From NCBI GenBank assembly GCA_934293005.1, contig CAKQYA010000005.1, positions 37,275-101,274 on the forward strand: a stretch of 64,000 nt of DNA. The letters run 5' to 3'. Numbering within the stretch: position 1 is the first letter of the stretch; every line of letters begins with the position of its first letter. This stretch comes from an uncultured Bacteroidaceae bacterium (GTDB taxonomy: Bacteria > Bacteroidota > Bacteroidia > Bacteroidales > Bacteroidaceae). The notes beneath the pieces were generated by a model. That model searched no databases. It was not told where the DNA came from and saw only the letters and a program-made list of their open reading frames with translations. Of the stretch, positions 3,716 to 60,803 are shown one piece after another. Both the position numbers and the translations under genes were made by a program.

Positions 3716-6700
3716 ATGAATGACAAAATAAAGAAAGTGCTGCTCCTTGGATCTGGAGCGCTAAAGATAGGCGAGGCTGGCGAGTTTGACTATTCGGGCT
3801 CTCAGGCTCTCAAAGCTTTGAAGGAAGAGGGCATACATACAGTGCTCATCAATCCAAACATTGCCACAGTGCAGACTTCTGAGGGTGTGGCAGACCAGAT
3901 ATATTTCTTGCCGGTCACTCCATATTTCGTGGAACGTGTGATAGAGAAAGAACGTCCTGATGGAGTGCTTCTCTCTTTTGGTGGACAGACAGCGCTCAAT
4001 TGCGGTGTTTCCCTCTTCCGCGACGGAGTGTTTGAGAAGTATGGCGTAGAGGTGCTTGGCACCCCTGTGCGTGCCATCATGGACACGGAAGACCGTGAGC
4101 TCTTTGTGGAGCGTCTCAATGAGATTGACGTTAAGACCATTAAGAGCGAGGCTGTGGAAAATATTGAAGATGCGCGCAGGGCTGCCAAGGAACTTGGCTA
4201 TCCTGTAATCATACGCGCGGCCTATGCTCTTGGCGGACTTGGAAGTGGATTCTGCGATACAGAGGACGAACTCAATGTCCTGGCTGAGAAGGCTTTCTCA
4301 TTCTCTCCGCAGGTTTTGGTTGAGAAAAGTTTAAGAGGATGGAAAGAGGTTGAGTATGAAGTGGTGCGCGACTGTTACGACAACTGCATCACTGTCTGCA
4401 ATATGGAAAACTTCGATCCATTAGGCATACATACAGGTGAAAGCATTGTCATTGCCCCATCGCAGACATTGTCCAACAGCGATTACCACAAACTTCGTGA
4501 ACTGGCAATCCGCATTGTGCGTCATGTGGGCATAGTGGGCGAGTGTAATGTGCAGTATGCCTACGACCCAGAGAGCGAGGATTATCGCGTCATCGAGGTC
4601 AACGCTCGTCTTAGTCGTTCATCGGCCCTTGCGTCAAAGGCCACAGGCTATCCGCTTGCTTTCGTGGCAGCGAAGCTGGGTCTTGGCTATGGCCTTTTCG
4701 AGTTGAAGAATTCTGTCACCAAGACCACAAGCGCATTCTTTGAGCCTGCGCTTGATTATGTGGTGTGCAAGATTCCGCGTTGGGATCTCGGCAAGTTCCA
4801 TGGTGTAGACCGTGAACTTGGCAGTTCTATGAAGTCGGTAGGTGAAGTCATGGCTATTGGCCGCACATTTGAGGAGGTCATTCAGAAAGGTCTTCGCATG
4901 ATAGGGCAGGGCATGCATGGCTTTGTCGGAAACAAGGAACTTGTTATTGAAGATGTAGACAAAGCCCTTCGCGAGCCAACAGATAAGCGCATATTCGTCA
5001 TATCAAAGGCCATGCAGCAGGGATACACCGTTGACCATATTCATGAGCTGACAAAGATTGACCGTTGGTTCCTCCAGAAGCTTAAGAAGATTGTTGACAC
5101 TTCTGATGAACTCACGAAGCACAATGCTGACACCCTTCCTGCCGACCTCCTCCGTAAGGCTAAGGTGCAAGGATTCTCAGATTTCCAGATTGCTCGTGCC
5201 ATCGGCCTTGAATCAAAGATGGGCAGTGAGGATGGCTCTATGGCGGTGCGCTCATTGCGCAAGAAGATGAACGTCATGCCTGTTGTCAAGCAGATTGACA
5301 CTCTTGCTGCTGAATATCCTGCCCATACCAATTACCTGTATCTCACATACAGCGGCACATCAAACGATGTGCAGTATGTTGGCGACCACAAGTCTATTGT
5401 GGTGCTTGGCAGCGGAGCCTATCGAATAGGTTCCAGCGTAGAGTTCGACTGGTGTGGTGTGCAAGCATTGCAGACCATACGCAAGCAGGGCTACAGAAGT
5501 GTGATGATCAATTACAACCCGGAGACAGTCAGCACCGATTATGACATGTGTGACCGCCTTTATTTTGATGAACTCACTTTCGAGCGTGTGCTCGACATCA
5601 TAGAATTGGAAAATCCGCATGGCGTCATAGTCTCTACCGGCGGACAGATACCAAACAATCTTGCTCTGCGTCTTGATACGGAAGGTGTGAATATCCTTGG
5701 CACCAGTGCTGCAAGTATCGACAATGCCGAAGACCGTGACAAGTTCTCTGCCATGCTTGACCGCATTGGAGTGGATCAGCCTGAGTGGAGCGCTCTCACG
5801 TCAATGGACGACATCAACAAGTTTATCGACAAGGTTGGTTTCCCTGTGCTTGTGCGTCCATCCTATGTGCTTAGTGGAGCGGCCATGAATGTGTGCAGCA
5901 ATCAGGAGGAACTTGAGCGTTTTCTCAGTCTTGCGGCCAACGTGTCGAAGAAGCATCCTGTGGTGGTGAGCCAGTTTATACAGCACGCCAAGGAGGTGGA
6001 GATGGATGCTGTGGCACGCAATGGCGAGATAATTGTATATGCAATATCTGAGCATATCGAGTATGCTGGAGTGCATTCGGGCGATGCCACAATACAGTTC
6101 CCACCGCAGAAACTGTATGTTGAGACCATGCGCCGCATCAAGCGTGTGAGCCGTAAGATAGCTCGTGAACTCAATATCTCAGGTCCATTCAATATCCAGT
6201 TCCTTGCACGCGAAAATGACATCAAGGTCATAGAGTGCAATCTTAGAGCTTCGCGTTCATTCCCGTTTGTCAGCAAAGTGCTCAAGATAAACTTCATCGA
6301 ACTTGCTACCAAGGTCATGCTCGGACTTGATGTGGAGAAACCAGGCAAGAACCTCTTCGACCTCGACTATGTTGGCATCAAGGCAAGCCAGTTCTCATTC
6401 AACCGCTTGCAGAAGGCTGACCCAGTGCTTGGTGTAGACATGGCTTCCACAGGTGAGGTAGGATGCATAGGCGACGACACTTCGTGCGCAATTCTGAAAT
6501 CAATGTTGAGTGTAGGCTACCGCATTCCTGCAACAGACAAGGGCATACTTCTCTCAACAGGCGATGCCAAGCAGAAAGTGGACATGCTGGCTGCTGCCCA
6601 ATGGCTGCAAAAGAAAGGCTACTGCATCTATGCCACTGGTGGCACATCGGCCTTCCTTGAGCAGAATGGAGTGAGCAATACACGTGTCTACTGGCCAAGC

Positions 6701-8828: not shown

Positions 8829-8900
8829 AAAAAAGGGATAGTAAGGATACTTCGTAAAGTATCTTAGGATACTTGGCCAAGTATCCTAAGATACTTTTTT
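8829..8900. repeat. palindrome array, locus A: tandem iterations of GGATACTT-N4-AAGTATCC
   Basis: aaaaagggatagtaAGGATACTTcgtaAAGTATCTTAGGATACTTggccAAGTATCCTAAGATACTTtttt; same unit recurs at 30785-30873 and 60551-60638. Confidence 0.8.
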
Positions 8901-9002
8901 AATGGTGTTTCGGATTGACTTTAAAGGCATGCGCAACTAATAAAGATGTATGGTCTTATTGTATTGACGGCGATAAGTTATGTGGCGCATCTCTATCGCA
9001 AG

Positions 9003-9038
9003 GTTTAACCCAAATCTAATGACCGATTTGGGTTAAAC
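9003..9038. repeat. solo palindromic copy of MITE-like TIR motif (gtttaacccaaatc-taatgacc-gatttgggttaaac)
   Basis: perfect 14-bp inverted arms around an 8-bp loop; arms match the termini of the ~200-bp element at 10947-11149. Confidence 0.7.
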
Positions 9039-9285
9039 ATGCTTCATTAGCTGAAAGAGTGTCATATTGCTCTGTGATCATGAAAATACTCCCAAGGAAG
9101 AGTGCGTGTTTCATATTTTATTCGTACTTTTGTTATGTCATTCAGAGTATCGTCCCACTTTTATCTTGTGGCACAGAGGTAAGTGTTTTTTTCCTGATAT
9201 GATGCGATGCTGAGCATTTTTGTGTTACTTAGGCGTTGCGAATTATTTTAATTATTGTGCCGTGCTGAAAAATGATGAATTTAAC

Positions 9286-10371
9286 ATGAAGAGAAATGAG
9301 ATTTGCTACATTGTTGTTGTGGCTATTATTGGAGTGTCGTTGTTTTTAGGATTTGCAGAAGAAGTGTTTGCTGTTAGTCTTGGCAAATTTGCATGGACGG
9401 CACACTGGGTGTCATCGCCTGTGGCGCTGGCTTTGGGTTTAGCTTTTGCTCTGCTTTTAGGCAAGGCATTTCCTGTGTTTAATAAGACCATGTCTAAAAA
9501 ACTGCTGCAATATTCCGTTATAGGATTAGGTTTCGGAATGAACGTGGACAAAGCGCTGGCATCGGGAAGTGAAGGTATGCTGTTCACTGTGGTCAGCGTG
9601 TTTGGGACACTTGCCCTGGGCTGGCTCTTTGGACGAAAGATTCTGAATGTAGATTCACAGACGAGCTACTTGCTTAGTTCAGGAACAGCCATATGCGGCG
9701 GTTCGGCAATAGCAGCTGTTGGGCCAGTAATCAAAGCTAAGGCAGAGAGCATGTCGGTGGCATTAGGCGTGGTTTTTGTTCTAAATGGCATCGCTCTGTT
9801 CTTGTTTCCATCTATTGGCAATGCCTTAGGCATGACGATGAAGCAGTTTGGCATGTGGGCAGCCATTGCTATCCACGATACATCTTCTGTGGTAGGTGCA
9901 GGTGCGGCATACGACCAGATGCATCCCGAACTTGTTGCCAGTCAAGGAGTGAGTGCGCTTGAGGTTGCCACAACCATCAAGCTTACGCGAGCTTTGTGGA
10001 TAGTGGTGTTGGCGTTGGTCACACCATTCTTCTTCCGCAGATCGCTTGCAGAGTCGGGCGGAATGTCGAAGCCTTGGTATAGCTGTGTGCCACGTTTCAT
10101 CATTTGGTTTATTGTGGCCATAATCTTCAATACATATATATTAAGCAACGCTTCGCTTATAGGCTATGGTGCCGCAGCAATAGGAGGCGAGTTGAGTGGT
10201 GCTGTCAGCAAGCTTGCCAAGCATCTCATCACGCTTTCGCTTTTCTTTATCGGTGCGTCGCTAACCAGAGAAACGTTGCGTAGCGTTGGTCTCCGCCCTC
10301 TTATCCAAGGTGTGCTGCTATGGATAAGCATCAGCTGCATCAGCCTTGTATATATCTTTGGGGTGGGATAA
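9286..10371 (+). CDS. YeiH/UPF0324 family putative sulfate-exporter membrane protein
   Basis: ORF 9220-10371, likely start MKRNEICYIVV; polytopic membrane protein with YeiH-like glycine-rich segments; TAcTTTTG box near 9122. Confidence 0.6.
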   Translation: MKRNEICYIVVVAIIGVSLFLGFAEEVFAVSLGKFAWTAHWVSSPVALALGLAFALLLGKAFPVFNKTMSKKLLQYSVIGLGFGMNVDKALASGSEGMLFTVVSVFGTLALGWLFGRKILNVDSQTSYLLSSGTAICGGSAIAAVGPVIKAKAESMSVALGVVFVLNGIALFLFPSIGNALGMTMKQFGMWAAIAIHDTSSVVGAGAAYDQMHPELVASQGVSALEVATTIKLTRALWIVVLALVTPFFFRRSLAESGGMSKPWYSCVPRFIIWFIVAIIFNTYILSNASLIGYGAAAIGGELSGAVSKLAKHLITLSLFFIGASLTRETLRSVGLRPLIQGVLLWISISCISLVYIFGVG

Positions 10372-10431
10372 TCATCGTGATGAATTGCCACAACGGATTG
10401 TGAAATATCATTCCAAACAGTTTGTTCCTTT

Positions 10432-10459
10432 CTTAAACCCAAATAGGTCATCAGATTGG
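10432..10459. repeat. partial copy of MITE-like TIR motif (ttaaacccaaataggtcatcagattgg)
   Basis: similar to ttaacccaaatcggtcatta motif found at 10947, 11127, 16251, 53496. Confidence 0.5.
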
Positions 10460-10613
10460 ACGAAATATTTGCTTAGATTATAATCTGTTGGTATTATCAT
10501 GTATTTATATTTAAATTGTTATACAATAGCATTGAATGGCTTTAATTTAAAACTATAAGCATTGTTGTTAAAACCTTTTTTTTATAATAAACATGCTTTT
10601 ACTGATTATTGCT

Positions 10614-10621
10614 TACCTTTG
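10614..10621 (+). promoter_or_regulatory. Bacteroidetes-type -7 promoter box TACCTTTG, distal promoter candidate for pyrG leader
   Basis: TAnnTTTG consensus in AT-rich DNA about 560 nt upstream of pyrG; no other consensus box nearer the start. Confidence 0.4.
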
Positions 10622-10859
10622 CATGTTGAAATGAGCAAGTGTTCAATAAGCATTCATTGAGAATGCCATATTTTTATTATTTAAAATTATCTTTGAACGA
10701 CTTGCTTGAAACAAATGGTTGCATAAATCTTTAATAATTGGTGTTATATGCTGAAATTCAAAATAAAACATAAAATCACAAACATTTGCGTGAAGCGCTC
10801 CCTCATGGAATCGAACACTATGCTAACTGCAGGATGTCAATCCGAGGGATGAGATGAGA

Positions 10860-10930
10860 GGGAACGAACCTGTTCCCGCATCAGAATGAATGTCCTCGCC
10901 CGAATTTGCAAGGGTGAGGATGTTTTCTTT
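10860..10930 (+). promoter_or_regulatory. terminator-like hairpins in pyrG 5' leader (possible attenuator)
   Basis: gggaac-gaacct-gttccc (10860-10877), then 8-bp stem cctcgccc/gggtgagg with 9-nt loop (10894-10919) followed by atgttttcttt. Confidence 0.35.
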
Positions 10931-10946
10931 ATAATACACAGGGGCT

Positions 10947-11149
10947 TTAACCCAAATCGGTCATTAGACCGAAACAGGGAAATTATCAGGACATTATTGT
11001 TTCTTTTCAACTCTTGTCAGCGTTTCTTTCGGCATCTTGCTTCCATTTGCGTTTCGACATAGCCTGCTATGCCTTCAACGCAACTGTCGCAACCTGCTCG
11101 AAACAAACACTAACAAGATTTGAAATCTAATGACCGATTTTGGTTTAAT
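10947..11149. mobile_element. MITE-like ~200-bp element, copy 1, with ~22-bp terminal inverted repeats
   Basis: left end ttaacccaaatcggtcattagacc, right end tctaatgaccgattttggtttaa (inverse complement); internal ~140 bp about 85-90% identical to 16125-16250; ends 33 bp before pyrG ATG. Confidence 0.5.
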
Positions 11150-11181
11150 CGAGGTGTCCACATAAACACACAAACATACAT

Positions 11182-12783
11182 ATGAAAACAAACTACATTT
11201 TTGTTACAGGAGGAGTGGTGAGTTCCCTTGGCAAAGGCATTATCTCAGCCTCTCTCGGCAAGTTGCTGCAAGCACGCGGCTACAGCATCACCATCCAGAA
11301 GTATGATCCCTACATCAACATTGATCCTGGCACGCTCAATCCTTATGAGCATGGCGAATGCTATGTGACCATCGATGGTCAGGAGACAGATCTTGACCTC
11401 GGACATTATGAACGCTTCACGGGCATTCAGACCACTCGCGCTAATAATGTCACCACAGGGCGCATATATCAGAACGTCATGGAGCGTGAGCGACAAGGAG
11501 GCTATCTTGGCCGCACCATCCAGGTGATACCTCATATCACGGATGAGATAAAGAAAAACATGCGAGCTCTTGGCGATACAGGCAAGTATGATTTCATCAT
11601 TACAGAGATTGGCGGCACCATTGGCGATATTGAGAGCCTTCCTTTCTTGGAGTCTATTCGTCAGCTGCGATGGGAAATGCCCGAGAACACCGTGTGCCTC
11701 CATCTCACATATGTGCCATACATAGCGGCTGCGGGCGAACTGAAGACAAAGCCTACCCAGCATTCTGTTAACAATCTGCAGAGCCTTGGCATACAGCCCG
11801 ACATCCTTGTGCTTCGTGCTGAACATGAACTGCCTCGCTCGCTCATGGACAAAGTGTCGTCGTTCTGCAATGTTGAAAAGCAATGCGTGGTGCAGAGCCC
11901 CGACTTGCCAAGCATATACGAGGTGCCTGTTAAGATGCAAGAGCAAGGGCTTGACGCAGCTGTCCTGCGCAAATTTGACATTGACCCGTCATCATCTGTT
12001 GCTGACTTGAAGTCGTGGCATCATTTCCTTGATAAGCGCAATGGTGCGCAGCGCACGCTTCGCATCGGCCTTGTGGGCAAGTATGACCTTCAAGATGCCT
12101 ACATCTCCATACATGAGTCGCTCTCGCATGCAGCTGCATATAACGACTGCCGCGCATCCTTCGTCTTCATCAACAGTGAGCATCTCACTAAAGACAATGC
12201 GGCTGATGCCATCGATGCCTGTGATGGCATCATCATATGCCCCGGCTTTGGCACAAGGGGAATAGAGGGAAAAATAATAGCTGCTCAGTATTGCCGTGAA
12301 CATGATGTGCCCACATTTGGCATATGTTTGGGCATGCAGATAATGGTGATAGAGTATGCGCGCAATGTTCTTGGCCTTGCTGATGCCAATAGCCGCGAGA
12401 TGGATGCTGACACGCCCAATAATGTCATTGACATCATGGAAGAGCAGAAGCATATCACTAATATGGGCGGCACCATGCGCCTTGGTGGTTATGAATGCCA
12501 TCTCTTGCCTGGCAGCAAGATACATGAAGCGTATGGCGTGGATGATATTGTGGAGCGTCATCGCCATCGTTATGAGTTCAATAACGACTTCCGCAGTTCT
12601 TTTGAAGCCAAGGGCATGCGCTGTGTGGGCTTCAATCCGCAGAACGGACTGGTGGAAGCTGTTGAATCAGAAAATAACAGCTGGTACATCGGTGTTCAGT
12701 ATCATCCTGAATATTCCAGCACTGTGCTCAAGCCGCATCCGCTGTTCATGAGTTTTGTTAAAGAGATTATCAGCAGATCATAG
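11182..12783 (+). CDS. pyrG: CTP synthase
   Basis: 533 aa; MKTNYIFVTGGVVSSLGKGI N-term synthetase domain, C-terminal GATase (GICLGMQ..., HRHRYEFN). Confidence 0.9.
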   Translation: MKTNYIFVTGGVVSSLGKGIISASLGKLLQARGYSITIQKYDPYINIDPGTLNPYEHGECYVTIDGQETDLDLGHYERFTGIQTTRANNVTTGRIYQNVMERERQGGYLGRTIQVIPHITDEIKKNMRALGDTGKYDFIITEIGGTIGDIESLPFLESIRQLRWEMPENTVCLHLTYVPYIAAAGELKTKPTQHSVNNLQSLGIQPDILVLRAEHELPRSLMDKVSSFCNVEKQCVVQSPDLPSIYEVPVKMQEQGLDAAVLRKFDIDPSSSVADLKSWHHFLDKRNGAQRTLRIGLVGKYDLQDAYISIHESLSHAAAYNDCRASFVFINSEHLTKDNAADAIDACDGIIICPGFGTRGIEGKIIAAQYCREHDVPTFGICLGMQIMVIEYARNVLGLADANSREMDADTPNNVIDIMEEQKHITNMGGTMRLGGYECHLLPGSKIHEAYGVDDIVERHRHRYEFNNDFRSSFEAKGMRCVGFNPQNGLVEAVESENNSWYIGVQYHPEYSSTVLKPHPLFMSFVKEIISRS

Positions 12784-15957: not shown

Positions 15958-15988
15958 CGTGCCTCGTCATGCATGCAACATAAACAAT

Positions 15989-16040
15989 GAAAAGCATCCC
16001 TCTTGCAATGATAAGTTTTGCAAGAGGGATGCTTTTTATT
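15989..16040 (+). terminator. rho-independent terminator after TPM gene
   Basis: aaagcatccctcttgcaa-tgataagt-tttgcaagagggatgcttttt attgtttg. Confidence 0.75.
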
Positions 16041-16077
16041 GTTTGTATGACAAGCTGAAGCTTTGCTGGGCTGTTTA

Positions 16078-16273
16078 TTCCAATTTGGTCATCATGCCGA
16101 AATAGAAAGATTGTTGGGATATCATAGTTTCTTTTCAACTCTTGAAAGCGTTTCTTTCAGCATCTTGCTTCCATTCGTGTTTCGACATAGCCCGCTATGC
16201 CTTCAACGCAGGCTGTCGCAATCTGCTCGAAACAGACATTGACAAGACCTAAAATCTAATGACCGATTTCGAC
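16078..16273. mobile_element. MITE-like ~200-bp element, copy 2 (left TIR degenerate), abutting the upp stop codon
   Basis: right end aaaatctaatgaccgatttcgac ends at 16273, upp stop (rc TAA) is 16274-16276; interior homologous to 10975-11125; degenerate left end ttccaatttggtcatcatgccgaaa. Confidence 0.5.
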
Positions 16274-16933
16274 TTATTCCTTTGTGCCATACATGAGGTC
16301 GCCAGCATCTCCAAGACCGGGGACTATGAACTTTCGGTCGTTGAGTGAGGGGTCAATAGCGCCGCAGAAAAGAATGACGTCATCTTTGGGAAATACTTGC
16401 TTGAGGTGTTTCACGCCTGCTTCTGAGGCGATGACGCAGGCAAGGATGAGTTTTTTGGGATGTCCTTTGGTTATGAATGCCCGATAGGCCAGTTCCATGC
16501 TCTCTCCTGTGGCGAGCATAGGGTCTACTATGAGCAAGGTTTTGTCATCGAGCAATGGTGAAGCCATATATTCAATCTTGACGCCTATCTTCGTGCACTC
16601 CTTGTCTGTATAATAGCGGAAGGCTGAGAGAAATGAGTTGCCTGCCTCGTCAAAGAAATCAAGGAAACCCTGGTGGAGGGGAAGGCCAGCACGGAAGACG
16701 GTAGCTATCACCACATCGTCGTCGTATGTGTTTGTCTTGCTGGTGCCAAGTGGTGTCTGCACTTCCTTTGTGGAGTAGGAAAGGTATTTGCTTGCCTCAT
16801 ATGCCTCGATGTGTCCGATGCGGCGTATGTTCTCACGGAAGCGCATACGGTCATTCTGGATGTTCACGTCACGAAGCTGGCTCATGAACTTGTTGATGAT
16901 AGAGTTTTCTTTTCCGAGATTGATTACTTTCAT
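16274..16933 (-). CDS. upp: uracil phosphoribosyltransferase
   Basis: 219 aa; MKVINLGKENSIINKFMSQLRDVNIQ..., PRPP-binding LLIVDPMLATGES, C-term GLGDAGDLMYGT. Confidence 0.9.
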   Translation of the reverse strand: MKVINLGKENSIINKFMSQLRDVNIQNDRMRFRENIRRIGHIEAYEASKYLSYSTKEVQTPLGTSKTNTYDDDVVIATVFRAGLPLHQGFLDFFDEAGNSFLSAFRYYTDKECTKIGVKIEYMASPLLDDKTLLIVDPMLATGESMELAYRAFITKGHPKKLILACVIASEAGVKHLKQVFPKDDVILFCGAIDPSLNDRKFIVPGLGDAGDLMYGTKE

Positions 16934-30606: not shown

Positions 30607-30685
30607 ATATGATTTCAGATAAGGCAAGGTGTCGTATCTGATTGGGCACAGACTAAAGATGTCGGTCTGTATAATACAATAAAAG

Positions 30686-30735
30686 AGCCCCTCATGCAAT
30701 ACTTATCATTGCAAGAGGGGCGCTTTTTGTTTTCT
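30686..30735 (+). terminator. rho-independent terminator after T9SS cargo gene
   Basis: gcccctcatgcaat-acttatc-attgcaagaggggc gctttttgtttt. Confidence 0.7.
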
Positions 30736-30784
30736 TATTGATGAAAGCTGCGCTGGTGTGTGCCTCATGCAGTTTTTATGTCGA

Positions 30785-30873
30785 AAAAAGATAGTAAGGA
30801 TACTTGGCAAAGTATTACGTGATACTTTGCAAAGTATTATATGATACTTGGCCAAGTATCACGTGATACTTTT
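30785..30873. repeat. palindrome array, locus B (GATACTT-N4-AAGTATC units x4)
   Basis: aaaaagatagtaaGGATACTTggcaAAGTATtacgtGATACTTtgcaAAGTATtatatGATACTTggccAAGTATCacgtGATACTTttta. Confidence 0.8.
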
Positions 30874-30985
30874 TAGGGGTGCTTCTTGGCATATTTTGCT
30901 GAAACGTGAGCATTTGCCAAGCCATGCCAAATGCAACATATTCGTTGACTTCACCCCCGTCTTGTGTCTGATGGTTGAATGGAGC

Positions 30986-49945: not shown

Positions 49946-50704
49946 ATGAGACAAATAATCATTGGCATATTGATGTTTTTCGTTCTTGTGCCAGCATCAG
50001 CACAGAATGCGCGCGACTATATACGCATGGGCAACAAGGCATACCGCCAAAGCCAGTATGACAAGGCTGAGACGATGTATTTAAAGTCCGTGTCTAAGGT
50101 GCCCTCATTCGAGGGATATTACAATCTTGGCAACGTTTACGTCATGCAGAGGAAAGACTCTACAGCCTTTGAAAATTATAAAAAAGCTGATTCAATAGGC
50201 ATTAACGATGCAGTGCGCAAATCGCTTAACTATCATAATATGGGCAATATCTGGTATGCTCAAGGCATTGCGGCGACTCGCTCGCATGAGGGCAATGCTG
50301 CAGATGCATTCCAGAATGCTGTCAATTTCTATAAGAGCGCACTTCGTTGCAATCCTTCCGATAATGAAACTCGATACAACCTTGCAATGGCGCAGTATCA
50401 GCTGAAGAAGAGCCAAAACAACAAAGGCGGCGGTCAGAATGATAATGGCAAGGATGATAAAGACCAACAGAAACAAAAGCAGCAGAATAAAGACCAACAG
50501 AAAAAGGACCAACAGAAAAAGGACCAACAGAAAGATAATAAGGATCAGCAGCAAAATAAATCCAACAGTGAGAAAAAGGATGAAATGAGCAAACAAGCTG
50601 CCGAACAACTGCTTAATTCTGCTCAACAAGATGAGAAGAGCGTTCAACGAAAATTGAACGAGAATAAGGACAACCGTCGCAAAACACTCGAAAAAGACTG
50701 GTGA
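49946..50704 (+). CDS. batC: aerotolerance protein BatC (TPR repeats with K/D/Q-rich low-complexity tail)
   Basis: 252 aa; TPR-like YYNLGNVY / HNMGNIWY; tail KDQQKKDQQKKDQQK. Confidence 0.7.
   Translation: MRQIIIGILMFFVLVPASAQNARDYIRMGNKAYRQSQYDKAETMYLKSVSKVPSFEGYYNLGNVYVMQRKDSTAFENYKKADSIGINDAVRKSLNYHNMGNIWYAQGIAATRSHEGNAADAFQNAVNFYKSALRCNPSDNETRYNLAMAQYQLKKSQNNKGGGQNDNGKDDKDQQKQKQQNKDQQKKDQQKKDQQKDNKDQQQNKSNSEKKDEMSKQAAEQLLNSAQQDEKSVQRKLNENKDNRRKTLEKDW
50488..50532 (+). repeat. 15-bp tandem repeat (aa[ag]gaccaacagaaa x3, plus a diverged copy upstream) inside batC
   Basis: encodes KDQQK iterations; potential length-variable low-complexity tail. Confidence 0.7.
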
Positions 50705-53420: not shown

Positions 53421-53495
53421 AAGTAAGAGCTGCTTTGCACGGTTGCTTGTAAAAACAAAAGGCTGCAAGCAGTTGTGAAATATTACATAAAACGT

Positions 53496-53520
53496 CCTGA
53501 TGACCGATTGGGGTTAATTG
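53496..53520. repeat. partial copy of MITE-like TIR motif (cctgatgaccgattggggttaattg)
   Basis: matches taatgaccgatttgggttaa consensus. Confidence 0.5.
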
Positions 53521-60419: not shown

Positions 60420-60550
60420 TCTTAAATCTGATTCGGCATCAGGCTGATGCCTATTGTGGGGTTGTGCATTAGTCGTTCTGTCCAACTCTTGCCAAAGTCG
60501 TTCTTCGGCATGTTGTTTTGCGCGTGCTATGCATGCGCATGAAACACCCG

Positions 60551-60638
60551 TAAAAAGTATCTTAGGATACTTGGTCAAGTATATTAGGATACTTTGCAAA
60601 GTATCTTAGGATACTTCGCCAAGTATCCTTACCCTCTT
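60551..60638. repeat. palindrome array, locus C (GATACTT-N4-AAGTATC units x4)
   Basis: taaaaAGTATCTTAGGATACTTggtcAAGTATattAGGATACTTtgcaAAGTATCTTAGGATACTTcgccAAGTATCCTtaccctctttttt. Confidence 0.8.
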
Positions 60639-60737
60639 TTTTGACGGATAATTTTGTTTCCATGCCCTTTGTTGTTATACGCACATGGGATGGAAAAGAC
60701 TTTGGCCCAAACGGTGACAAGAATTGAAAAGAATCCC

Positions 60738-60803
60738 CCAATTTACTAATGACCTCCATTAGAAAAATGACAAGAAGCTTTTTCTGATGTCCGATTGGGA
60801 ACA
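60738..60803. repeat. degenerate MITE-TIR-like inverted pair (cccaatttactaatgacc ... gatgtccgattggg)
   Basis: both arms resemble cccaaatctaatgacc / gaccgatttggg; ~30-bp spacer. Confidence 0.4.

Follow-up and report, generated by a model that had tools for sequence, protein, structure and literature searches.

The window, by which we mean the whole stretch of 64,000 nucleotides that was analysed, contains two full-length copies of a short repeat with inverted ends, copy A just upstream of pyrG and copy B at the stop codon of upp, as well as smaller pieces of related sequence. The features are listed by window coordinates.

9009–9032, no strand: 24-bp mini-palindrome CCCAAATC+TAATGACCGATTTGGG, flanked by TTTAA/TTAAA (HMM).
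10438–10455, plus strand: solo end-like sequence CCCAAATAGGTCATCAGA, 2 mismatches, preceded by TTAAA.
10946–10950, no strand: target-site duplication TTTAA on the left side of copy A, the same as 11144–11148 (sequence).
10951–11143, minus strand: MITE copy A, 193 bp, intact; family-HMM match with E 4e-41.
10951–10968, plus strand: left terminal inverted repeat of copy A, CCCAAATCGGTCATTAGA, identical to the ends of a 1,467-bp IS1380-family IS in contigs L047 and L100.
11126–11143, plus strand: right terminal inverted repeat of copy A, TCTAATGACCGATTTTGG (sequence).
11144–11148, no strand: target-site duplication TTTAA on the right side of copy A, 33 nt upstream of the pyrG ATG (sequence).
11182–12783, plus strand: pyrG (CTP synthase; Pfam CTP_synth_N/GATase), downstream of copy A.
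16080–16273, minus strand: MITE copy B, 194 bp, ends degraded and hairpin weakened; HMM match 16080–16272 with E 2e-33.
16274–16278, with its second copy at 16075–16079, minus strand: target duplication of copy B (filled/empty-site alignment).
16274–16933, minus strand: upp (uracil phosphoribosyltransferase; Pfam UPRTase), stop codon within the copy B duplication.
53495–53513, plus strand: solo end-like sequence TCCTGATGACCGATTGGGG, followed by TTAAT (HMM).
60746–60799, minus strand: relic of the left end of an autonomous IS, inverted repeat plus subterminal hairpin, part of a roughly 94-bp remnant (60706–60799).

The ends of copy A are 18-bp terminal inverted repeats (TIRs), and the 5-bp TTTAA on either side of the element is its target-site duplication. 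An earlier note on this DNA had given the TIRs as 22 bp (22–24 bp). The inverted ends are real but shorter than claimed: the outer 5 bp belong to the duplication, which was mistaken for TIR because TTTAA is nearly palindromic. From the end of the duplication to the ATG at 11182 the distance is 33 nt. A GAAATC just before the right TIR also matches the IS end that bears the transposase stop codon. The TIRs are conserved in 58 aligned family copies, and the element is small (193 bp), with neither a transposase nor conserved coding capacity. A small protein encoded by copies A and B was considered and rejected: ORFs of at least 20 aa are not kept in frame between the copies, and the short ORFs either lose register by a 1-nt indel or have no counterpart, in agreement with the lack of coding capacity noted earlier.

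Copy A was found in all recovered contigs of the window species and is identical in strain contigs L001 and L135. Comparison of two strains gave 0 differences over 204 bp; the flanks differ by ~2%, hence only ~4 differences would be expected, too small a number to indicate extra purifying selection on copy A. Copy A is a member of a recently amplified subfamily, which occupies at least four further sites in metagenome contigs, one of them (L150) with the duplication ATTAA/ATTAA. In a sister species whose PyrG protein is 86% identical, the guaA-pyrG spacing is only 185 bp and the element is absent, a coarse empty state for copy A. Region 10438–10950 is not repeated in any fetched locus outside the window species.

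Copy B adjoins the upp stop codon, as had been described, with boundaries at 16080–16273. Its similarity to copy A, put earlier at ~85–90% for the interior, is a mean column identity of 87% over about 240 columns, and no comparable long direct repeat occurs elsewhere in the window. On the upp strand, the copy B duplication reads AATAA (ATAAA with the boundary moved by 1 nt) and includes the upp stop codon TAA. Nine contigs that encode an identical Upp protein have this site either filled (L137, L138, L141 and L144) or empty (L139, L140, L142, L143 and L145). Filled and empty contigs differ in length by 199 bp, and the empty site is precise, with a single AATAA retained. The repeat thus generates strain-level structural variation beside core metabolic genes. 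Two SNPs flank the copy B site. Because the ends of copy B are degenerate, the filled and empty states may go back to an old insertion that segregates between lineages, not to recent movement.

We built an HMM from 58 family members and searched the window with it. Exactly two full-length copies were detected, at 10951–11143 and 16080–16272, both on the minus strand, along with fragments at 8999–9032, 10438–10480 and 53473–53513. The 15-mer TCTAATGACCGATTT occurs 8 times in the window when up to 3 mismatches are allowed, versus 1.85 expected, and 8 occurrences were reached in 0 of 100 shuffles. Among the partial motifs reported earlier, the solo palindrome (9009–9032) and the sequences at 10438–10455 and 53495–53513 are indeed element fragments; the one at 60746–60799 is not a MITE fragment but the relic of an IS. 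The palindrome is probably a collapsed MITE, which would have arisen by deletion between two AAATC repeats of a copy-A-like element; AAATC repeats are present in the sequence of copy A. The end-like sequence at 10438–10455 forms the right boundary of a 1.4-kb segment that is absent from strain contig L135. This segment carries a gene with element remnants on both sides and is missing in one strain. When 60746–60799 was aligned to the left ends of the IS in L047 and L009, 54 of 89 columns were invariant among the three sequences. The relic attests only to the past presence of an IS, and a tblastn search with the IS transposase found no transposase gene in the 64-kb window.

Bacteroidales genomes and viral contigs yielded over 100 copies. 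The 18-mer end maps to more than 115 GTDB genome loci among the matches listed, and the 20-mer end is present in 15 IMG/VR contigs. The range of the 18-mer and 20-mer ends covers Prevotella, Hallella, Bacteroides, Phocaeicola, Parabacteroides, Muribaculaceae, Paludibacteraceae and Alloprevotella. Paired ends are most commonly spaced by 180–200 bp (54 pairs, among the matches listed). The HMM gave 99 near-full-length matches in 62 fetched loci, a number that also counts opposite-strand matches on the same palindromic copies. The analysed copies were retrieved via an exact match to one end and are thus biased toward intact elements and phylogenetically non-independent. A blastn search of phage and plasmid reference collections with a common subfamily as query returned no match. 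Many end matches sit 50–140 nt away from the end of a contig, as would be expected if assemblies break at repeats. The family reaches high copy numbers in Prevotellaceae and Bacteroidales of the human and animal gut, and it breaks short-read assemblies, as in contigs L002 and L136, which end inside copy A.

Target-site duplications, proposed earlier as a check, are the rule. Perfect 5-bp duplications flank 50 of 80 copies, with 13 different sequences, versus 0 of 80 in the control; copy A itself has TTTAA/TTTAA. The target consensus is W-T-N-A-W, typically TTTAA, TTAAA or ATAAA, with an invariant T at position 2 and an invariant A at position 4. Because the target often contains TAA, copies often lie at stop codons, as copy B does on upp.

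A search for a cognate transposase had also been suggested, and a gene with matching ends was found in an IS of 1,467 bp present in L047 and L100. The carriers are a Prevotella MAG and Hallella bergensis, L100 being strain DSM 17361. In L047, the IS spans positions 427–1893 and has a single 442-aa ORF. The L047 protein scored 233.2 bits against the NCBIfam model NF033539 'IS1380 family transposase' (cut-off 180), covering positions 2–418 of 419, and 139 bits against Pfam DDE_Tnp_1_4 (PF13701). NCBI names it IS1380 family transposase (WP_302974199.1; 90% cluster, n=4,417), and it is 27–29% identical to the transposases of ISEcp1 and ISEnca1. By the ISfinder rule, the ends of IS1380-family elements start with CC. 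The ends of the partner IS are CCCAAATCGGTCATTAG(A/G) and begin CCC, and perfect 5-bp duplications flank it (ATAAA in L047, TTAAA in L100). The IS thus has the traits of the family: one ORF, short inverted repeats starting with CC and 5-bp duplications, within the 4–5 bp typical of the family. The sequence that it has in common with the MITE is limited to the 17–18-nt ends, so a derivation of the MITE interior from the IS was rejected.

These results make it highly probable that the copy A/B family is a non-coding MITE mobilised in trans by an IS1380-family DDE transposase with the same 18-bp ends. The mobile, non-autonomous, MITE-like repeat proposed in the earlier note is thereby borne out: additional copies scattered over unrelated loci of many Bacteroidales genomes, target duplications, a precise empty site in strains that encode an identical Upp protein, and a cognate transposase were all found. 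The copies at unrelated loci and the empty copy B site exclude the opposite scenario, in which relatives would share a conserved regulatory region at orthologous positions and no site would be empty. The 193-bp element would be unable to move alone, and the DDE transposase of the 1.47-kb IS would act on it in trans. Both the IS and the MITE duplicate 5 bp when inserting, and the transposase would bind the ends and make a 5-bp staggered cut. The known ends, the 5-bp W-T-N-A-W target and the IS1380-family partner can be used for annotation and as a strain marker.

We looked at the position of copy A relative to the promoter of pyrG. The only −7-type promoter boxes upstream of pyrG are at 10614 and 10688, and copy A lies between them and the start codon. 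On the pyrG strand, no Bacteroidetes −7 box TAnnTTTG was found from 10696 to the pyrG ATG. The idea that the element may supply expression signals to pyrG is therefore not supported, the box being absent from copy A and from the 33 nt that follow it. Among 57 family copies, TAnnTTTG was found in one on one strand and in four on the other; a sigma-70 scan is not meaningful for Bacteroidetes. Because copy A lies between the two boxes and the start codon, the pyrG mRNA most probably includes it. Judging from this arrangement, copy A most probably rides in the pyrG mRNA as a large 5′-leader hairpin and brings no promoter, and we reasonably infer that it may modulate pyrG expression in this form. 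Transcription of pyrG probably passes through a hairpin of about −70 kcal/mol located 33 nt before the start, a natural case for the study of leader structure in Bacteroidetes.

Copy A as a whole forms one long imperfect hairpin, with complementarity extending beyond the ends. As RNA, the minus strand folds at −90.6 kcal/mol (z −9.5) and the plus strand at −71.7 kcal/mol. With DNA parameters, the values are −53 (minus) and −41 (plus), with a fold z of −10.7. Copy B, whose hairpin is weakened, folds at −53 kcal/mol with a z of −1.4. Across the 193-bp family, 41 pairs were tested: 91.2% of the cells were paired, versus 75.0% in shuffled controls and 31–47% with slid partners. Double-change cells numbered 402, versus 130 in shuffles, and 0 of 500 shuffles reached any of the five measures. 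An apical CGGG loop is conserved in the family, as is a mismatch of G56 (52 of 57 copies) opposite A119 (50 of 57). The adjacent pair A57·G118 is less fixed, with A in 31 copies and C in 17.

The fold is systematically better on one strand. In the window-minus orientation, 54 of 57 copies fold better, with a mean difference of −13.7 kcal/mol (Wilcoxon p 1e-10), and clustering at 75% interior identity gives 25 groups, 24 of which show the same direction. Wobbles are unbalanced in the same family (151 G·U cells versus 54 A·C cells); the G·U excess could in principle also come from strand-specific C-to-T mutation in a single-stranded stage, not from selection. Orientation relative to the flanking ORFs is random (25 to 26 upstream, 23 to 28 downstream), and a function that depends on the host mRNA was rejected on this ground. 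One strand folds better whatever the orientation of the neighbouring gene, so this strand appears to be selected in a single-stranded form, as RNA or ssDNA. The interior of the family is thus not junk, and the single-stranded form probably matters for the success of the element itself, most likely as read-through RNA and alternatively as an ssDNA stage. MITE families of other lengths (about 150 bp and 240 bp) share these ends and are weakly structured. The hairpin is therefore no general need of the transposase, and we rejected it as a transposase requirement. An internal hairpin preserved on one strand is the only unusual feature of the 193-bp element.

What the hairpin does can be read in two main ways. 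A tentative possibility is that the interior is primarily a structured non-coding RNA gene or module packaged between transposon ends, with a role for the cell or for the element, for instance by regulating the transposase or by binding a protein of the host or of the element. Covariation well above controls and a strand-specific stability seen in 24 of 25 subfamilies point in this direction. So do the G·A mismatch and the CGGG loop, both retained amid stems whose sequence is entirely replaced, and the fixed element length of 193 bp; the existence of same-end families without structure likewise indicates that the transposase does not dictate the fold. However, the Bacteroidetes promoter box is virtually absent from the element and no internal promoter was found, and with random orientation relative to the neighbours, transcription would read the wrong strand in half of the copies. 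A known RNA family was looked for and rejected: with Rfam 15, the whole window gave only a tRNA at gathering score, and the region 10380–11200 searched at E up to 10 gave only chance-level matches of at most 18 bits. The apical motif was found only in end-bounded elements of viral contigs. A free-standing ancestor of the core was rejected as well, the three viral contigs with the apical motif being one normal MITE and two chance coding matches. Finally, ssDNA parameters yield the same asymmetry, so the folding energies do not discriminate between RNA and ssDNA. Were the RNA reading true, gut Bacteroidales would have a novel, widespread class of RNA that travels on a DDE transposon.

Somewhat less probable still, and unlikely on present evidence, is that the hairpin is selected as DNA and has no RNA function, as a single-stranded or cruciform intermediate that aids mobilisation; it could hold the two ends close to each other, or form on the template of the lagging strand. 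The fold with DNA parameters is highly non-random (z −10.7) and asymmetric, the hairpin juxtaposes both ends, and among the matches listed no other size class of same-end elements is as abundant as the hairpin family. A cruciform, however, would select both strands equally, yet one strand is favoured, and the unstructured same-end families likewise bear target duplications. To our knowledge, no single-stranded intermediate is known for IS1380- or piggyBac-type DDE transposition, which also speaks against a DNA-level role.

We propose only with reserve that the 193-bp family is the vehicle of a strand-specific structured nucleic acid with its own function, likely an RNA of ~150 nt with a G·A internal loop and a CGGG apical loop, or else the sign of an unrecognised single-stranded step in IS1380/piggyBac-type transposition. 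A functional RNA or a single-stranded transposition step would, if true, be something new for DDE transposon biology.

It is highly improbable that the sequence is no mobile repeat but a conserved leader (a riboswitch or attenuator) that regulates pyrG or upp in cis. The two copies do adjoin genes of pyrimidine metabolism, one just before pyrG and the other just after upp, and the structure is strong, but copies also sit beside unrelated genes in dozens of genomes, target duplications are present, the sister species has no element upstream of pyrG and Rfam gave no match, and the precise empty site of copy B and the distribution of copies refute this reading. We consider equally improbable a REP/BIME palindrome spread by a RAYT (an IS200/IS605-like tyrosine transposase) or an integron attC-like single-strand site, which would account for a palindromic, intergenic, multi-copy sequence with strand-specific folding and for the short solo palindrome at 9009–9032. 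REP/BIME elements are marked by an absence of duplications and by a link to a Y1 transposase, whereas the present elements have regular 5-bp duplications and the same ends as an IS1380-family IS, which encodes a DDE transposase and itself has duplications. No RAYT or integrase was seen beside the copies, and the solo palindrome is explained by a collapsed MITE.

We compared the family with known systems. piggyBac, a eukaryotic relative of IS1380, targets TTAA. The family described here resembles it in using a short AT-only, palindrome-like target with fixed T and A positions that is duplicated (TTNAA here, TTAA for piggyBac); it differs in that the duplication is 5 bp, not 4 bp, and the system is bacterial. 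Correia elements (NEMIS/CREE) of Neisseria and ERIC/IRU elements of enterobacteria are short (100–200 bp), intergenic, multi-copy and largely palindromic. They fold into long hairpins once transcribed and are found in mRNA leaders and trailers; Correia elements in addition undergo RNase III processing, carry promoter or IHF sites and duplicate TA. The 193-bp MITE is likewise a short palindromic intergenic hairpin element, known here from sequence and fold. Its ends, transposase family and host phylum are different, and its duplication is the 5-bp W-T-N-A-W in place of the TA of Correia. Also unlike Correia and ERIC, its 193-bp hairpin covaries across genera and systematically favours one strand.

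The partner IS shares with the IS1380 family (ISEcp1, IS1247, ISPme1) a single DDE transposase, CC-starting ends and 5-bp duplications; with 1,467 bp it is among the shorter members. A 5-bp DR is listed for IS1247 (PMC3281130). IS1380-family members move adjacent DNA via imperfect end-like sequences, and ISEcp1 and ISPme1 have strong outward promoters (PMC9330008). Unlike in these two, no outward promoter box was found in the MITE. Compared with the partner IS, it also lacks a transposase, has only 18 bp in common and contains an unrelated structured hairpin as its interior.

Within Bacteroidota, the family resembles the MITEs of Porphyromonas gingivalis (BrickBuilt, MITE239/293/464/700), which are non-autonomous and have ends that match a resident IS (PMC4596501). 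They are intergenic, reach 10–20 copies per genome and show filled/empty polymorphism between strains; the IS elements that their ends match are ISPg elements of the IS5 family (GAGACCTTTGCA), and the duplications vary (PMC4596501). The likeness lies in non-autonomous intergenic elements with IS-matching ends and filled/empty sites. The family described here differs by its IS1380-family ends, its regular 5-bp duplication and a conserved hairpin interior instead of tandem repeats.

Literature searches with the end sequences found no relevant paper among those covered, and those for 'IS1380' with 'miniature inverted' found no Bacteroidales case. A 2024 census (Nucleic Acids Res 52:13094, PMC11602168) lists 81,380 different MITEs in Bacteroidota genomes. 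It is an automated catalogue in which 'IS1380' has 0 occurrences and no target rule or conserved structure is described (PMC11602168). Some of its MITEs also occur in Prevotella and Bacteroides phages (PMC11602168), and the 193-bp family is similarly found in IMG/VR viral contigs. Cultured carriers are Hallella bergensis DSM 17361 for the IS and Hallella faecis CLA-AA-H145 for the closest MITE.

The stretch upstream of pyrG (10946–11149) aligns with a relative at ~16075–16278 at a mean column identity of 87%, and the two correspond to repeat families D2 and D5 of a repeat search of the window. This bears out the repeat described in an earlier note, which had also given it terminal inverted repeats (TIRs) of 22–24 bp. 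The inverted ends are real, but the true TIR measures 18 bp and the remainder is a near-palindromic 5-bp duplication, TTTAA. With ≤3 mismatches allowed, the window contains 8 occurrences of the 15-mer at the core of the ends, versus 1.85 expected. We call the intact element upstream of pyrG copy A and the degraded one, adjoining the upp stop codon, copy B.

Features of the window discussed in the text
10951–11143: copy A, 193 bp, with the duplication TTTAA at 10946–10950 and 11144–11148
11182–12783, plus strand: pyrG
16274–16933, minus strand: upp
10438–10455: solo element end
53495–53513: solo element end
8829–8907, 30782–30888 and 60538–60642: arrays of a ~22-nt palindrome (GGATACTTnGnCAAGTATCCTAA)

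Short open reading frames (ORFs) within copies A and B show no in-frame conservation between the two, in agreement with the proposed lack of coding capacity, and only one tRNA reached the gathering score in an Rfam scan of the whole window. The earlier note had suggested looking for target-site duplications, empty sites, further copies and a cognate transposase with matching TIRs, and all were found. Of 80 short elements whose ends each had ≤2 mismatches, 50 carried identical 5-mers on both flanks, versus 0/80 perfect matches for the control, the next 5-mers outward. The duplicated 5-mers were of 13 kinds, including TTTAA, TTAAA, TTGAA, ATAAA, TTTAT and ATAAT, and had T at position 2 and A at position 4 without exception, which defines the target as W-T-N-A-W. 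It is this family rule that places copy A at 10951–11143, with TTTAA on both sides. Because the target often contains TAA, copies come to adjoin stop codons: several lie 2 nt past one, and copy B indeed ends exactly at the stop codon of upp.

We compared the copy B site among contigs encoding exactly the Upp protein of the window. The distance from upp to the next gene is 316 nt in four of them (L137, L138, L141, L144) and 117 nt in five (L139, L140, L142, L143, L145), and alignment of filled and empty contigs gave a clean 199-bp difference. The empty site reads ...CACAAAGG-AATAA-ACGGCAC..., the filled one ...CACAAAGG-AATAA-[194 bp]-AATAA-ACAGCCC...; the boundary of copy B can be moved by one base to ATAAA, which conforms to the family target rule. 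This polymorphism proves that the element is mobile. When metagenomes were scanned for a motif diagnostic of the subfamily represented in the window, near-identical copy A-type elements were recovered at no fewer than four additional sites, one of them (L150) flanked by ATTAA on both sides. Copy A itself is carried by all recovered contigs of the species, intact in L001 and L135; L002 and L136 are broken inside it. In a species whose PyrG is 86% identical, guaA and pyrG are separated by just 185 bp, without the element.

Some Bacteroidales metagenome-assembled genomes (MAGs; noted with L062, L122 and L097) hold 3–5 copies per 8 kb, and in L062 two copies (4162–4354 and 4359–4551) lie head-to-tail, 4 nt apart. 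Target duplication at every insertion may mean that the copies already present generate new target sites alongside themselves.

The 18-mer CCCAAATCGGTCATTAGA, an element end, was found at >115 loci among the matches listed in GTDB species genomes, nearly all of them in Bacteroidales (Prevotella, Hallella, Leyella, Alloprevotella, Bacteroides, Phocaeicola, Parabacteroides, Muribaculaceae and Paludibacteraceae), and a 20-mer of the end matched 15 IMG/VR contigs; as copies were gathered by exact match to one end, these counts are lower bounds biased toward intact ends. Many matches lie 50–140 nt from a contig terminus with the element continuing past it, as multi-copy repeats break short-read assemblies. 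When every end was paired with the next inverted end, spacings of 180–200 bp dominated among the matches listed (54 pairs), and a small class spanned 1,415–1,467 bp. The 1,467-bp copies, in L047 (a Prevotella MAG) and L100 (Hallella bergensis DSM 17361), have the ends of the window element, perfect 5-bp duplications (ATAAA and TTAAA) and a single 442-aa ORF. Against the NCBIfam model NF033539 ‘IS1380 family transposase’, this protein reaches 233 bits (cut-off 180); it also matches Pfam DDE_Tnp_1_4, bears the NCBI name IS1380 family transposase in a 90% cluster of 4,417 members, and shares 27–29% identity with the transposases of ISEcp1 and ISEnca1. Comparison of the short element with this insertion sequence (IS) revealed nothing in common beyond the 17–18-nt ends.

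No transposase was found in the window. However, 60746–60799, the right half of a ~94-bp remnant (60706–60799), is a relic of the left end of the autonomous IS that includes the subterminal hairpin, showing that the IS family was once present in this genome. [quoted passage not shown] It is correctly described, and well explained, as a MITE of an IS1380-family IS, and the MITE family occurs widely among gut Bacteroidales, with polymorphism between strains.

In full, copy A folds as a single long imperfect hairpin whose complementarity goes beyond the ends (minus-strand RNA, −90.6 kcal/mol, z −9.5; plus strand, −71.7 kcal/mol, z −5.8). The hairpin of copy B is decayed (down to −53 kcal/mol, z −1.4). 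For an alignment of 58 members of the 193-bp family, copies were oriented according to their sequence similarity, without regard to folding energy. Their interiors are only ~65% identical, yet most copies are 192–195 bp long and retain the hairpin. RNAalifold predicted 42 pairs, with compensatory double changes in 32. On 41 tested pairs, 91.2% of cells were paired (75.0% shuffled; 31–47% with slid partners) and 402 cells were double changes versus 130 in shuffles; 0/500 shuffles attained any measure, although such controls overstate significance because the aligned sequences share kinship.

Folding was more stable in the orientation matching the minus strand of the window for 54/57 copies (mean difference −13.7 kcal/mol, p 1e-10) and for 24/25 clusters at 75% interior identity. 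There were 151 G·U cells versus 54 A·C cells. The stem conserves a mismatch, G56 (52/57) facing A119 (50/57); the adjacent A57/G118 varies more (31 copies with A, 17 with C), and the apical hairpin GUAG-CGGG-CUAC is nearly invariant. Neither duplex DNA nor a symmetric cruciform can be the level at which a mismatch conserved on one strand, or an excess of wobble pairs, is selected; both features point to one strand acting in single-stranded form. DNA energy parameters gave the same asymmetry as RNA parameters, so that both RNA and single-stranded DNA fit. Orientation relative to flanking ORFs was random (25 to 26 upstream, 23 to 28 downstream), and a Bacteroidetes −7 box sought inside the element was absent. 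Strong structure is lacking in other families with the same ends (~150 bp and ~240 bp); the hairpin is thus a trait of the 193-bp family and not a transposase requirement. The covarying, strand-specific hairpin with its conserved non-canonical positions is the sole surprising feature of the element. We regard the involvement of a functional RNA, or of an unrecognised single-stranded step, in the 193-bp family as a real but rather unlikely possibility.

One copy (L128, 3478–3670) has a flipped apical loop, GTAGCCCGCTAC in place of GTAGCGGGCTAC, as if the hairpin centre had been inverted.

The −7 box TAnnTTTG occurs 70 times in the window (44.9 expected; reached in 0/100 shuffles), consistent with a Bacteroidetes genome using that promoter element. 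On the pyrG strand, the last boxes ahead of the ATG are at 10614 (TACCTTTG), which the earlier note had called the only consensus promoter box, and at 10688 (TATCTTTG); none lies in copy A or the following 33 nt. Copy A thus appears to supply no recognisable promoter, contrary to the suggestion that it may provide pyrG expression signals, and we infer that pyrG is transcribed through it. In its pyrG sense, copy A would then form a hairpin of ~−70 kcal/mol in the transcript, a short distance ahead of the start codon, and any modulation of pyrG by copy A would act via mRNA structure, processing or stability.

A GC-rich structured stretch follows the two boxes, and a terminator-like hairpin read from the sequence (CCTCGCCC-N10-GGGTGAGG plus TTTTCTTT, 10893–10929) lies just upstream of copy A. 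Region 10600–10930 could be a ~300-nt sRNA or a pyrG leader attenuator; it has no Rfam match and is absent from every fetched locus outside the window species. On the minus strand, 11171–11178 is a perfect −7-type box (TATGTTTG) directed away from pyrG into the best-folding strand of copy A. As CAAACATA also occurs in the MITE-less sister species (contig L134), it may simply belong to the pyrG leader. There, five tandem 17-bp units (tcattatcttgagcaWK) fill the guaA-pyrG spacer (L134, 680–790).

Among the solo palindrome and partial TIR motifs of the earlier note, 9009–9032, 10438–10455 and 53495–53513 are MITE pieces; only 60746–60799 belongs to the IS instead. The 24-bp palindrome 9009–9032 (CCCAAATC joined to TAATGACCGATTTGGG) is probably a copy A-like element collapsed by deletion between its two AAATC repeats, whose expected product it fits exactly. 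Strain contig L135 lacks the 1.4-kb segment between this palindrome and the solo end at 10438–10455 (~9033–10437), which holds a gene at 9220–10371 (Pfam PF03601 Cons_hypoth698). At the junction in L135, a MITE with an internal deletion is joined to the solo end, showing that MITE remnants mark strain-specific gene presence and absence. The 155 bp rightward of this junction are 15% diverged, versus ~2% elsewhere.

Correia and ERIC elements are transcribable long hairpins found in leaders and trailers, and the window element is alike in this. Porphyromonas gingivalis MITEs match IS5-family ends (PMC4596501); the window element is likewise an IS-matched, non-autonomous element of Bacteroidota, with IS1380-family ends instead. 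Within the IS1380 family, IS1247 generates repeats of 5 bp (PMC3281130), and IS1380 members can move adjacent DNA through imperfect ends (PMC9330008). A census published in 2024 catalogues tens of thousands of MITEs from Bacteroidota, some of them shared with Prevotella phages, as uncharacterised entries and without mention of IS1380 (PMC11602168). A literature search by the element end sequences found no paper containing them.

The window holds other repeats. The ~22-nt palindromic units (GGATACTTnGnCAAGTATCCTAA) form REP-like intergenic arrays unrelated to the MITE, and the array after guaA has one unit more in L135 than in the window. Two long perfect-stem palindromes, 15971–16055 (between a TPM-domain gene and copy B) and 30681–30727 (AAAAGCATCCCTCTTGCAA...TTGCAAGAGGGATGCTTTT), show 85% mutual complementarity over a distance of 14 kb and are likely bidirectional terminators. 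Repeat family D4 consists of tandem 15/30-nt repeats at 50457–50546 (AAAAGGACCAACAGA...). Finally, in seven IMG/VR viral contigs (L005, L006, L008, L010, L014–L016), one lone end from another family that shares the TIR lies, in a conserved arrangement, ~190 bp ahead of a gene; the product of this gene begins MENNVDNVVALADVCEVLQGKNVDKKK and, by eye, resembles a restriction-modification specificity subunit.
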